A DNA stretch of 64,000 nucleotides. Source: Candidatus Omnitrophota bacterium. GTDB lineage: Bacteria; Omnitrophota; Omnitrophia; Omnitrophales; Aquincolibacteriaceae. Location of the stretch: NCBI GenBank assembly GCA_022709525.1, contig JAKLIQ010000006.1, forward strand, positions 66,708 to 130,707. Reading direction: 5' to 3'. Below the pieces are notes generated by a model. The model saw only the letters and a list, made by a program, of their open reading frames with translations. It was not told the origin of the DNA and made no database searches. Below are positions 50,469-51,380 of this stretch, piece by piece. The position numbers were made by a program, and so were the translations under genes. Numbering within the stretch: the first letter of the stretch is position 1; the number at the start of each line of letters is the position of its first letter.

Positions 50469-50475
50469 GGTTTTA

Positions 50476-50550
50476 CTCCTTTAATGAGCGCATAACTTAC
50501 GGAGTGAAGCGACGTAAGTTATTTGCGCGAATTAAACCCCACACCCAGCG
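50476..50550. repeat. groE-locus repeat, forward copy R1 (hairpin GCGCATAACTTACG-n11-CGTAAGTTATTTGCGC + GAATTAAACCCCACACCCAGCG), immediately 5' of groEL1
   Basis: R1 is >90% identical over ~75 bp to copy R2 at 50991-51066. Its outer end ...GCGCTCATTAAAGGAG (minus sense) supplies the groEL1 RBS. Confidence 0.85.
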
Positions 50551-50623
50551 CCTGCTGATTTGTGAGATTTTGTGAATAGTGTTTTTCATGATTTATTTTA
50601 CCGGATTATTTCCACGACCCATT

Positions 50624-50696
50624 GCTGGGCGTGGGGTGAATTCGGGTCTACCATTTAGCTTCACTTCGCTCGCTAAATGATGCCCTCATTCACTCC
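50624..50696. repeat. groE-locus repeat, inverted diverged copy L1 (GCTGGGCGTGGGGTGAATTC + hairpin CATTTAGC...GCTAAATG)
   Basis: L1 is the reverse complement of the R-type consensus at ~65% identity. It faces R1 across a 73-bp AT-rich spacer and overlaps the groES stop codon. Confidence 0.75.
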
Positions 50697-50983
50697 TTCT
50701 CGTAAACGGCGAGGATCTCGCTCTCTTTGAGGATCTTGTGCTTGACGCCGTCGATCACGATATCATCGCCGGAATATTTCCCGAAAAGCACGCGGTCGCC
50801 TTTTTTTACTTCGATCGCCTGGACTTTGCCGGACTCGAGCGTTTTGCCGGCGCCGACCGCGACCACTTTACCCTCGGTCTTTTCCTCTTTCGCGGTATCC
50901 GGAAGGATGATGCCGCCTTTGGTTTTTTCTTCCGCTTCAAGAACTTCCACCAGCACTCTGTCCGCTAACGGTTTTACTTTCAT
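50690..50983 (-). CDS. groS: co-chaperonin GroES
   Basis: [34 protein letters not shown]...; 97 aa. Confidence 0.95.
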
Positions 50984-50990
50984 GTTTGGG

Positions 50991-51066
50991 TCTCCTTTAA
51001 TGAGCGCATAACTTGCGGAGTGAAGCGACGTAAGTTATTTGCGCGAATTAAACCCCACACCCAGCG
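50991..51066. repeat. groE-locus repeat, forward copy R2, immediately 5' of groES
   Basis: Near-identical to R1 and supplies the groES RBS (UUAAAGGAGACCCAAAC-AUG). Confidence 0.85.
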
Positions 51067-51067
51067 C

Positions 51068-51298
51068 TTAGCTTAAGGATCGCTTGATCCGCTGCTTTAA
51101 CGCTGTTAGTGCCTGGGCATAATGTTTAAGTTTTCGTTCGCGATCCCTAGCATCAGTCTCAGATCGGTAAGCTTCATAATATTTAAGCTCCCATGATCCT
51201 TTCGCCTGATGCTCGGCCATTCTCCTTTTTAGATTACTGCTATACCCGTAATACAGGTCTTGGGTTGATTTGTTCTTCAAAACATATACATAATGCAT
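51068..51298 (-). CDS. GIY-YIG nuclease family protein (small, YhbQ/UPF0213-like)
   Basis: MHYVYVLKNKSTQDLYYGYSSNLKRRMAEHQ: GIY...YIG motifs, conserved R, and conserved E in the RMAEH block. 76 aa with no obvious RBS. Flanked by repeat copies L2 and R2 in inverted orientation. Confidence 0.8.
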   Translation of the reverse strand: MHYVYVLKNKSTQDLYYGYSSNLKRRMAEHQAKGSWELKYYEAYRSETDARDRERKLKHYAQALTALKQRIKRSLS

Positions 51299-51303
51299 AC
51301 AAA

Positions 51304-51380
51304 GCTGGGTGTGGGGTTAATTCCGAAAAATCACTTAGCTCTCCGCCGTTAGCGGATTCGCTAAGTGATGTCGTCATTAA
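51304..51380. repeat. groE-locus repeat, inverted diverged copy L2 (GCTGGGTGTGGGGTTAATTC + hairpin CACTTAGC...GCTAAGTG)
   Basis: L2 is the reverse complement of the R-type consensus. It lies between the groEL2 stop (which it overlaps via TCATTAA) and the GIY-YIG start. Confidence 0.75.

Follow-up and report, generated by a model that had tools for sequence, protein, structure and literature searches.

Inverted hairpin modules around a small GIY-YIG nuclease gene in a groE operon belong to a DNA element family that appears distantly related to Ssn nuclease/repeat systems

The window (the whole 64-kb stretch of Omnitrophota DNA that was analysed) carries a groE operon on its minus strand at 48840..53026, in which the ORFs of groEL2 (51377-53026), groES (50690-50983) and groEL1 (48840-50468) follow one another in an order also found in two related loci, L076 and L094. 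Upstream of groEL2, on the same strand (53140..53202), lie a CIRCE-like inverted repeat, TTAGCACTC-N9-GAGTGCCAG, at 53140-53166 and a sigma-70-like promoter match at 53202-53175, the sole promoter-like site on the operon strand. Both elements described below sit in the two intercistronic spacers of this operon and, because only one promoter-like site was found on its strand, the nuclease gene which one of them contains is probably co-transcribed with groE.

The locus holds four copies of a 73-81-nt module and one degenerate solo copy upstream of groEL2. A covariance model made from the copies of other genomes recovered the four at E = 2e-10 to 3.5e-16, in agreement with an earlier sequence-only reading of this DNA which had proposed them. 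The start-type module A (50477..50549, minus strand; 86.2 bits, E = 3.5e-16), the right end of an ORF-less doublet, consists of a 13-nt arm GCUGGGUGUGGGG (50537-50549), helix P1, a UC/UC internal loop, a 14-bp stem and CUCAUUAAA, and a GGAG (50476-50479) adjoins its P1 7 nt ahead of the groEL1 ATG. The start-type module B (50993..51065, minus strand; 82.2 bits), the right end of the GIY-YIG element, has a GGAG (50992-50995) adjoining P1 8 nt ahead of the groES ATG; the seven-nucleotide Shine-Dalgarno spacing which had been read at both genes holds for groEL1 but not for groES. These two forward copies, 5' of groEL1 and groES, are as nearly identical as had been claimed (99% across 76 nt, 50476-50551 against 50992-51067), and the hairpin does have 14 pairs, interrupted by a 2-nt bulge. 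The two diverged copies in inverted orientation, also recognised earlier, are the end-type modules C (50624..50696, plus strand; 70.5 bits, E = 6.3e-13), which is the left end of the ORF-less doublet in the mRNA sense, and D (51304..51384, plus strand; 58.5 bits, E = 2e-10), the left end of the GIY-YIG element, whose apical stem is 8 nt longer. Module C contains the groES stop codon (50690-50692) and module D that of groEL2 (51377-51379), both where the sequence-only reading had placed them. The solo start-type module in the groEL2 leader (53036..53094, minus strand; 24.9 bits, E = 0.0018) keeps P1 (UUAAAU/AUUUAA) and the UC/UC loop as well as a long G+C-rich stem, after which comes AAGGAGG; it lacks the 13-nt arm and lies directly upstream of the groEL2 Shine-Dalgarno. 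Across the 64 kb, the 13-mer CCCCACACCCAGC occurs four times at up to one mismatch, always at the groE locus, and a fifth time with two mismatches at 33938 (five matches at up to two mismatches against a chance expectation of 0.76).

Paired in this way, the modules bound two elements. The ORF-less one, between groES and groEL1, measures 220 bp (50477-50696), as first read, but its AT-rich core between the two inward-facing 13-nt arms is 74 nt long (50550..50623) rather than 73; this core contains neither a GIY-YIG ORF nor a recognisable remnant of one and is weakly similar to the first half of 'spacerX' in related genomes. The other, 392 bp long (50993-51384; 390 bp in the earlier account), has as its core an ORF for a 76-aa single-domain GIY-YIG nuclease (51068..51298, minus strand), the ATG of which follows the left 13-nt arm by 7 nt and has no Shine-Dalgarno.

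Sequence and model alike place the 76-aa protein in the GIY-YIG nuclease superfamily. It matches Pfam PF01541 at E = 6.5e-10, with 39.6 bits where the cut-off is 22.6, and its AlphaFold model (pLDDT 96.6) has a beta-beta-alpha-beta-alpha fold with predicted elements E2-9, E15-20, H23-33, E36-44 and H47-75. In the PDB it comes closest to UPF0213 BH0048/EF2693 and the I-TevI catalytic domain, and a PDB profile search found UPF0213 proteins at E = 1.6e-4. Six positions (G18, R26, Y40, E42, R53 and E54) are invariant in 52 sequences and three more (Y5, Y16 and H30) nearly so, the Tyr, Tyr, Arg, His and Glu of the superfamily being conserved. Domain searches and the AlphaFold model revealed no DNA-binding domain of the homing-endonuclease kind; TIGR01453 scored 16 bits against a cut-off of 56, and tblastn against 72,556 plasmids gave no match. 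The gene is under strong purifying selection, with a dN/dS of 0.04-0.12 similar to that of GroES.

Single-domain nucleases of this size flanked by repeats have a precedent in the Ssn proteins and their NTS/SRM hairpin repeats (Chenal et al., Nat Commun 2025, PMC11893778), and the class of element found here is not unprecedented. Ssn proteins bind ssDNA and cut a few nucleotides 5' of the hairpin site, NTS copies number in the hundreds per genome, and the repeat-gene-repeat layout 'is identical to' that of an insertion sequence in the words of the authors, who do not mention Omnitrophota (PMC11893778). By profile comparison the Omnitrophota nuclease is a distant homologue of the canonical Ssn ssDNA nucleases: hhalign aligned its family with 12 NTS-flanked-type proteins of 94-104 aa, two of which had their NTS flanks checked directly, at a probability of 96.5% and E = 7.9e-10 (31% identity over 62 columns). 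The canonical proteins were reached with a family consensus as the query, and the matches were verified by their NTS flanks. Pairwise BLASTP gave E = 9e-8; the Ssn clade itself is delimited by cd10448 or by a blastp E below 1e-10 to N. meningitidis SsnA. No module in the window matches the SRM motif HGTCWYN(0-2)YYVSBRHN(0-5)WNVSBRGN(0-2)RNCYNB, which has one unrelated match there at 59122 (0.46 expected); as a control on L099 and L105, the same regular expression recovered three canonical NTS around each control gene.

The two systems share a single-domain GIY-YIG protein of less than 100 aa with hairpin repeats on both sides of its gene in an IS-like layout, the intergenic dispersal of the same repeats and a presence within operons, as in the canonical hsdR-ssn-hsdM. 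They differ in that the repeat here combines a 13-nt arm, P1, an internal loop and a 14-bp stem in 73 nt instead of being a hairpin of ~28 nt, and in that the 76-aa protein lacks the 9-residue GFTKKY-type insert and has another C-terminal helix. Moreover, the modules here are strictly paired as inward-facing doublets, with arms able to pair across the core; the element ends contain a stop codon and a Shine-Dalgarno; tens rather than hundreds of copies are seen per genome; and the elements occur almost exclusively in MAGs which bear an Omnitrophota or Planctomycetes label or are unclassified. Literature searches (the 13-mer; GIY-YIG with MITE, REPIN or Omnitrophota) returned no prior description, and on present sequence comparisons the family is an undescribed, distant relative of the Ssn nuclease/hairpin-repeat systems.

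The two groE elements are members of a small DNA element family found in many Omnitrophota genomes. A scan of genome collections yielded 83 loci, often several in one MAG, with the full module in MAGs whose label is Omnitrophota or Planctomycetes or which are unclassified. In 649 kb from 84 sources, almost all of them MAGs so labelled, covariance model R1 found 145 module copies, which are private neither to groE nor to heat-shock genes, and at least 10-16 modules were seen per MAG, a number well short of the hundreds reported for NTS. The negative control was a set of 80 rpsD loci (232 kb) taken from a metagenome scan with ribosomal protein S4, in which relatives reached at most 64% identity and were too distant to supply empty rpsD-rpoA sites; R1 had no match in the 79 unrelated loci, and its only two matches were both in L112, of the L095 lineage. 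An IMG/VR motif scan gave one match in 2.9 million contigs, which indicates that the element is not phage-borne.

An element in this family is two inward-facing inverted copies of the ~73-nt module around a core, and the module consensus runs from a conserved 13-nt arm GCTGGGTGTGGGG through helix P1, a conserved TC/TC internal loop and a long hairpin to TCATT. The 145 modules include 60 such inverted pairs. GIY-YIG genes recur within them, a point which the sequence-only reading had proposed to check: 15 pairs enclose an intact gene of 76-78 aa, others hold truncated remnants (L016, L017, L020), and about 33 have short loops. In all, 17 intact genes were each seen between two inverted modules. 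More than one ORF-bearing copy can occur in one MAG (e.g. L014, L070), and within full elements the 76-aa protein was the only ORF product found, with no cognate transposase of a known family.

All 19 helix pairs of the module show covariation, with 95.8% of cells paired against 69% in shuffles; the inverted repeats described earlier as TIR-like are structured hairpin modules. Within the helices, G-U/U-G pairs (38) are no commoner than A-C/C-A combinations (60), and a strand bias is absent in both module types, with modules transcribed in sense and in antisense compared separately, which argues for a DNA rather than an RNA hairpin. The pattern points to constraint at the DNA level, and covariation restricted to Watson-Crick pairs would fit recognition as ssDNA, in likeness to Ssn/NTS. 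An Rfam 15 scan of 48000-54000 at E <= 10 found no match to the modules, only terminator look-alikes, and a described RNA family was rejected on this ground.

This evidence bears on the idea that the modules serve the host as cis-acting RNA elements in polycistronic mRNAs (intercistronic processing sites, 5' or 3' stabilising hairpins, or translation-initiation platforms) with the GIY-YIG gene as an incidental passenger. In keeping with such a role, the modules have a constant place with respect to stop and start codons, the Shine-Dalgarno comes directly 3' of P1, and a solo module lies in the groEL2 leader; the RNAs of both spacers fold much better than shuffles (z = -5.3 and -5.8), and the modules are probably transcribed, the only promoter-like site being upstream of groEL2. 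Orthologous modules also remain 80-95% identical while synonymous sites differ by ~45-70%, and they show compensatory changes: module B is 83-85% identical to its orthologues in L076 and L094, and module D 91% identical to that in L076 with one compensatory C-G to G-C change. We nevertheless consider a host RNA function quite improbable, since the excess of A-C over G-U and the lack of a sense-strand bias in start-type modules are unlike structured RNAs, no Rfam family matches, the modules occur in both orientations to transcription and always as inverted pairs around the nuclease gene or its remnants, and the nuclease has its nearest characterised relatives in proteins which bind ssDNA and not RNA (PMC11893778). 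Two observations fit a host function as well and tell against a mobile element: pairing is kept by compensatory changes in orthologous modules fixed near start codons, and a solo module persists in a 5' leader.

The embedding of the elements at gene boundaries extends well beyond groE. Most lie between co-directional genes, one of them between rpsD and rpoA, and they have a polarity in which the left module holds the upstream stop codon and the right module meets a Shine-Dalgarno or an ATG. The upstream ORF was resolved for 36 elements, and for 28 of these its stop falls at -1..+4 relative to the first base of P1; among 61 elements, a Shine-Dalgarno adjoins P1 in 25 and lies within 14 nt in a further 7, and an ATG adjoins P1 in 12. 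Together with the copy number, the inverted pairing and the differing positions described below, these figures support what the sequence-only reading had suggested, a small GIY-YIG-associated mobile or miniature element which sits at gene boundaries and donates a ribosome-binding site.

The alternative offered by that reading, an operator or RNA thermometer specific to heat shock in the groE regulon, is refuted by the distribution of the copies and retains next to no credibility. All five copies in the window are at groE and one copy in another MAG precedes dnaK, but 50 downstream genes span 73 Pfam families (transporters, secretion ATPases, tRNA synthetase, purine biosynthesis, rpoA), and the helices lack the G-U bias of an RNA. 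The region upstream of groEL2 already holds a distinct CIRCE-like operator, three of the five modules are missing from the same operon in L076, and the Shine-Dalgarno is free, not sequestered, in the predicted fold.

Target-site duplications, which the sequence-only reading had proposed to look for, were not found: the flanks of 61 elements contain no direct repeat, nor was a conserved target tetra- or pentanucleotide found at the elements. A GGAG/GAGG duplication had been suspected from the many GAGG left flanks, and was rejected because left and right flanks, compared pair by pair, share no direct repeat; the CCTC of end-type modules more plausibly lengthens P1 by pairing with the GGGG of the arm. 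The lack of a duplication, like the unmatched SRM motif and an identity of only ~30% to canonical Ssn proteins, counts against an Ssn-like mobile element.

The position of the element at groE differs between related genomes. In L094, an orthologous element with modules 80-95% identical lies between groES and groEL1, not between groEL2 and groES, and a probable footprint of the left module remains after groEL2. In L076, the same operon lacks both the doublet and the solo module of the groEL2 leader; in the window/L076 alignment, the groES-groEL1 spacer has been replaced wholesale and insertion boundaries are not definable. Copying appears slow. Modules from one MAG resemble each other more than modules from different MAGs do: the nearest relative of a module is in the same MAG for 20 of 78 modules (4.3 expected) and in another MAG for 58. 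No genome yielded two complete elements of fully identical sequence. The nuclease gene has kept pace with groES in its divergence (dS 0.7-2.2 against 0.6-1.0), which indicates that mobility is slow, and the element behaves as a long-term resident, possibly a domesticated one, rather than as an active transposon.

What moves might be less than the whole element. A minimal free-standing homing-endonuclease gene could home into the centre of palindromic repeats between the 13-nt arms, with the ORF alone being selfish and the doublets spread or kept by other means. Conservation begins sharply at the 13-nt arms while the cores are interchangeable (ORF, remnant, loop or an unrelated 74 nt), and an Ssn-style cut 5' of the hairpin (PMC11893778) would fall at the core edges. 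In one MAG, the loci L024 and L079 agree exactly in their centre (arms, loop and the 5' strands of P1) between unrelated hairpins, which resembles a short conversion tract around a central cut. The ORF-bearing element also occupies different neighbouring spacers in L076 and the window on the one hand and L094 on the other. However, the distinctive left and right modules in L094 moved with the ORF (80-95% identity), so the whole element is the unit that changed place; the 76-aa protein lacks a homing-type DNA-binding domain, and an unsystematic look for another enzyme that might spread the doublets brought up no candidate. We regard homing of the ORF alone as unlikely.

Several other known systems share features with the family. 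REPIN-RAYT systems likewise consist of inverted hairpin-repeat doublets with a short spacer and a cognate nuclease gene flanked by repeats, and persist vertically for long periods with slow copying within the genome; membership was rejected because the flanked gene encodes a GIY-YIG nuclease and not an HUH/Y1 (RAYT) transposase, and the modules here are three times longer than REPs, with several ORF-bearing copies possible per MAG. IS200/IS605 elements are also tiny, have subterminal hairpins recognised as ssDNA and produce no target-site duplication, but they carry TnpA (HUH) or TnpB genes, absent here, and have distinct left and right hairpins instead of inverted-pair ends, as well as a conserved target tetra- or pentanucleotide. 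Correia/ERIC-type MITEs are short intergenic inverted-repeat elements in operons which are co-transcribed and can change the expression of neighbouring genes; they originate from IS with DDE transposases and make target-site duplications, whereas the elements here have none and combine covarying helices with a cognate GIY-YIG nuclease gene. A classical DDE-type IS or MITE was rejected on the missing duplication and the absence of a known-family transposase. Finally, the I-TevI and Seg homing endonucleases have the GIY-YIG catalytic fold, and gene conversion initiated by a double-strand break or nick is a possible mode of spread in common with them, but they exceed 200 aa, and the target here would be a repeated hairpin and not a unique gene.

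On balance, and with moderate confidence, we favour an Ssn-like nuclease/hairpin-repeat element family which works and is tolerated by its hosts in the following way. First, by homology with Ssn, the nuclease would recognise the modules as ssDNA hairpins and nick beside them. Second, recombination or gene conversion initiated by the nuclease would copy, move and homogenise the units, and the ORF-less doublets would act as non-autonomous copies of the REPIN/MITE type. Finally, the left end would terminate the upstream reading frame and the right end would carry AAGGAG(G) or adjoin the next ATG; with ends whose polarity matches the flanking genes, an insertion would be translationally non-polar and could survive in essential operons such as groE and rpsD-rpoA. 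Within this window no promoter-like site belongs to the element itself, which is for that reason probably expressed from host promoters.

A bolder version holds that the ~390-bp unit is fully autonomous mobile DNA, whose sole protein, the 76-aa nuclease, acts on its own ssDNA hairpin ends and which, with a built-in stop codon and ribosome-binding site, colonises intercistronic junctions of essential operons non-polarly. This is conceivable, though we doubt it. If true, the unit would rank as the smallest autonomous mobile element in prokaryotes and as the first to encode only a GIY-YIG protein, and it would answer whether Ssn/NTS nuclease-plus-repeat units are or were transposable elements. 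To that question the family brings a clean series of architectures, in which doublets contain the nuclease gene, its decayed remains or nothing, comparative evidence for a shift in position of the whole unit between related genomes, and evidence suggesting that the hairpins are constrained as DNA.

Ends that carry a stop codon and a Shine-Dalgarno are an unusual adaptation for life inside groE and ribosomal or RNA-polymerase operons. The 76-aa protein and its putative 73-nt site would add a new nuclease/recognition-site pair for ssDNA tools. The repeats would also explain breaks in Omnitrophota assemblies at these genes, and annotators should be aware that the C-terminal residues and ribosome-binding sites of the flanking genes may be element-derived.

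The groE genes of the window, all on the minus strand, follow the order groEL2 (51377-53026), a 76-aa open reading frame (51068-51298), groES (50690-50983) and groEL1 (48840-50468), and hairpin modules lie at their boundaries. As the sequence-only reading had described, two direct copies of 76 nt (50476-50551 and 50992-51067) are 99% identical and two diverged copies (50624-50696 and 51304-51384) have the opposite orientation. The supposed GIY-YIG gene inside one pair matches the domain (PF01541, E = 6.5e-10), and groES and groEL2 do have their stop codons inside the inverted copies. 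Each forward copy is followed by GGAG; the proposed spacing of 7 nt to the ATG holds for groEL1 but not for groES, where it is 8 nt. In a scan of the 64 kb, the 13-mer CCCCACACCCAGC has four occurrences with at most one mismatch, confined to this locus, and five matches with up to two mismatches (0.76 by chance). A covariance model of the module detects a fifth, degenerate solo copy without the 13-mer (53036-53094, minus strand; E = 0.0018), immediately 5' of the groEL2 Shine-Dalgarno sequence.

Read in its own orientation, a module begins with the arm GCTGGGTGTGGGG and a T, followed by a helix P1 of 5-6 bp (e.g. TTTAAT/ATTAAA), an internal loop of conserved TC/TC, a P2 of 4 bp, a small bulge and a P3 of 10 bp (conserved CTTAYG...CRTAAG) whose loop is often TTCACTTCGTTC; it ends with CTCATT and the 3' strand of P1. 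In a complete element two inverted modules point their 13-nt arms inward, so that the arms are able to pair across the core. The proposed hairpin covaries: for 54 MAFFT-aligned copies, drawn from many genomes, RNAalifold predicted 19 pairs, with compensatory changes in 14. In the model-based alignment of 145 copies, pairing holds in 95.8% of cells (69% in shuffles), double changes occur at 19/19 helix pairs, and the covariation score falls from 0.61 to 0.09 or less when the partner is slid by one to three columns. Covariation is conspicuous in P1 (TTCAAT/ATTGAA, TCAAAT/ATTTGA, TCCAAT/ATTGGA).

The repeat is a family and not a peculiarity of groE, and other copies also flank GIY-YIG genes. The covariance model finds 145 copies in 649 kb of scanned loci, forming 60 inward-facing pairs. 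Fifteen of the 60 enclose an intact 76-78-aa GIY-YIG ORF in a core that is always 233-252 nt; about a dozen have cores of 59-102 nt, and several of these cores are recognisable as GIY-YIG genes with internal deletions (L016, L017, L020). About 33 pairs have loops of 5-36 nt, some of which are kept between MAGs, so some empty doublets form their own lineages. A central loop of 24-25 nt, (C)AAACCATAGC..ATGTAG..TTG, is common to ORF-less doublets of different MAGs (L040, L041, L061, L069, L073, L023, L048). In 80 rpsD loci (232 kb), the model found no copies in the 79 unrelated loci and two matches, both in L112 (L095 lineage). When one genome per species was scanned for the exact pattern, 83 loci matched. 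The full module occurred at loci in MAGs labelled Omnitrophota/Planctomycetes or unclassified, in many cases with more than one contig of a MAG involved; those from other phyla lacked the rest of the module and were close to the chance number, which we estimate at roughly 18. At least 5,936 database proteins match the nuclease family at E <= 1e-3, and nearly all of the best 120 are 76 aa long. Many of these proteins come from contigs of less than 2 kb, as would happen when assemblies break at a repeat. The element was essentially absent from the viral contigs searched.

The hairpins may have been co-opted by the host as RNA signals. Compared with shuffles, the spacer transcripts show much stronger folding (z = -5.3 and -5.8), as does the spacer in the form of single-stranded DNA (z = -5.9); Rfam has no family matching the modules. 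In helices of functional RNAs, G-U is usually accepted much more readily than A-C. Exceptions among 2,551 paired cells comprise 38 G-T/T-G and 60 A-C/C-A. The start-type modules, which form the right ends of elements and would be transcribed in sense, have 11 G-U against 19 A-C and are no more G-U-enriched than the end-type modules of the left ends (10 against 13), which would be transcribed in antisense; an independent MAFFT alignment gave a similar picture. This strict Watson-Crick complementarity without strand bias is a DNA-type constraint and points to selection on DNA hairpins or cruciforms.

AlphaFold gives the nuclease a confident minimal GIY-YIG fold (pLDDT 96.6) with a terminal helix of 29 residues. 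Among solved structures it best matches UPF0213 proteins and the catalytic domain of I-TevI, and catalytic-type residues are kept in the family. Across the window and the groE loci of two other genomes, L076 and L094, the gene is under purifying selection, its dN/dS (0.04-0.12) being as low as that of GroES (0.03-0.08) with comparable dS; the gene is thus functional and diverged together with the host locus. The modules of these loci are 80-95% identical where synonymous sites differ by ~45-70%, and module changes between related loci are compensatory substitutions.

Small GIY-YIG nucleases with cognate hairpin repeats have been known as a class since 2025. Ssn proteins are single-domain GIY-YIG proteins of ~94 aa that bind a hairpin repeat (NTS/SRM) as ssDNA only and cleave upstream of it at a distance of a few nucleotides; most of their genes are repeat-flanked in an IS-like layout, and a role is known only in Neisseria (PMC11893778). 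Our comparison set comprised real Ssn-type proteins of 94-104 aa, with NTS flanks confirmed for two (P0152 from Leptolyngbya and P0240, both flanked by canonical CGTCATTCCCGCG...GCGGGAATCCAG repeats). Profile comparison shows that the Omnitrophota family is homologous to them (probability 96.5%, E = 7.9e-10, 31% identity). The Omnitrophota nuclease differs from Ssn in its C-terminus and in the absence of a 9-residue insert, and the published SRM motif, which recovers control NTS, matches no module in the window. By analogy, the element would work like an Ssn/SRM system, although membership of the defined Ssn family is not established. A literature search returned no description of the Omnitrophota lineage, the composite 73-nt module, its paired 13-nt arms and stop/Shine-Dalgarno ends, or comparative relocation evidence. 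Two type I restriction-modification operons also harbour canonical Ssn-type genes (94-96 aa; L099 1437-2030, L105 1458-2194): Leptolyngbya sp. PCC 6406 has one between hsdR and hsdM, a metagenomic lineage has one beside hsdS, and several canonical NTS repeats surround each.

The elements have a polarity and are embedded at gene boundaries: the GIY-YIG ORF is in every case oriented from the end-type towards the start-type module, and most elements lie between co-directional genes. The upstream ORF could be resolved at the left end of 36 of 61 elements. Its stop codon falls at -1 to +4 of the first P1 base in 28 of the 36 (within an invariant AATGA in 15 of these 28), so the upstream gene takes its final one to three codons from the element. 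The GroES C-terminus reads ...YEKE* in the window but ...YESEK* in L076, where this site is free of an element. At the right end, GGAG/GAGG abuts P1 and precedes a start codon with an ORF of at least 60 codons in 25/61 elements; in 7/61 a Shine-Dalgarno sequence lies within 14 nt, and in 12/61 the ATG itself abuts P1 without one. The Shine-Dalgarno sequence may have pre-existed at the target site. The earlier claim that the repeat end supplies the ribosome-binding site is nevertheless reasonable, since in three insertion contexts the conserved block extends through ...CTCATTAAAGGAG and divergence begins immediately beyond. Target-site duplications, named earlier as a signature of mobility, are absent at the elements. 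The alternative that the modules are cis-regulatory signals of the heat-shock regulon is refuted by their functionally unrelated neighbours: the 50 downstream genes span 73 Pfam families, and one element lies between rpsD and rpoA.

Element position and presence differ among the three groE loci, a positional polymorphism. L076, a related MAG whose GroES is about 88% identical (by reading the sequences), resembles the window in having the ORF-bearing element in the groEL2-groES spacer; it lacks both the ORF-less doublet of the groES-groEL1 spacer and the solo module of the groEL2 leader. The order in L094 is groEL2, groES, element, groEL1, and the element's modules are orthologues of the L076 modules, with identities of 85% (left) and 95% (right). 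At the equivalent position behind groEL2, L094 carries CATCACTTAGCG/CTAAGT, probably the footprint of a left module reduced to its stem base with the tip deleted (alignment score matched by 2-5 of 500 shuffles). The mobile unit may, however, be mainly the core rather than the whole element. Two copies in one MAG (JAQTUC01; L024 3719-3899 and L079 5355-5552) have the same 72-nt centre, made up of a 25-nt loop, the two 13-nt arms and the P1 5' strands, whereas their hairpins on either side differ completely, a pattern that indicates mosaic recombination between copies. Modules are more alike within than between MAGs (permutation p < 0.001), with the nearest neighbour in the same MAG for 20/78 (4.3 expected), and the two direct copies in the window, both start-type modules, are 99% identical. 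Element turnover is real but slow, and most copies predate the species sampled.

The Ssn analogy suggests how whole elements could persist. The 76-aa nuclease would recognise each module as an ssDNA hairpin, one module being "forward" on each strand because the two are inverted, and would nick next to it. Repair or recombination could then copy, move or homogenise units and cores, and ORF-less doublets could persist non-autonomously. The built-in stop codon and Shine-Dalgarno sequence would keep insertions non-polar, allowing survival in essential operons.

The nuclease is probably co-transcribed with groE, since the only promoter-like site on the operon strand in the window precedes groEL2. 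This sigma-70-like match (TTGATT-16-TACAAT) and, directly downstream of it, a CIRCE-like inverted repeat, TTAGCACTC-N9-GAGTGCCAG, occupy 53140-53202 on the minus strand. The repeat is the sole HrcA-type operator at the locus, and L076 has TTGGCACTC-N9-GAGTGCTAG in the same place. At 48795-48822, where groEL1 and a histidine-kinase gene converge, a G+C-rich hairpin flanked by A/T runs probably acts as an intrinsic terminator in both directions; its Rfam look-alike matches (Thr_leader and STnc370) are weak and sub-threshold. The gene order groEL2-groES-groEL1 is kept in L076 and L094. The GroEL paralogues differ in their C-terminal tails, that of GroEL2 having the usual GGM repeats with element-derived last residues DY* and that of GroEL1 being lysine/acid-rich. 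L076 and L094 carry a second repeat, "spacerX", a hairpin of ~125 nt (RNA fold z = -3.4) whose 5' half is rich in A/C; its 3' half is rich in G/T and finishes with AAAGGAG. The copies in L076 (4528-4651, minus strand) and L094 (3470-3620, plus strand) are about 75-80% identical by eye. One precedes groEL1 and the other groES, spacerX and the GIY-YIG element having exchanged positions between the two genomes; the 74-nt core in the window (50550-50623) weakly resembles the first half of spacerX.
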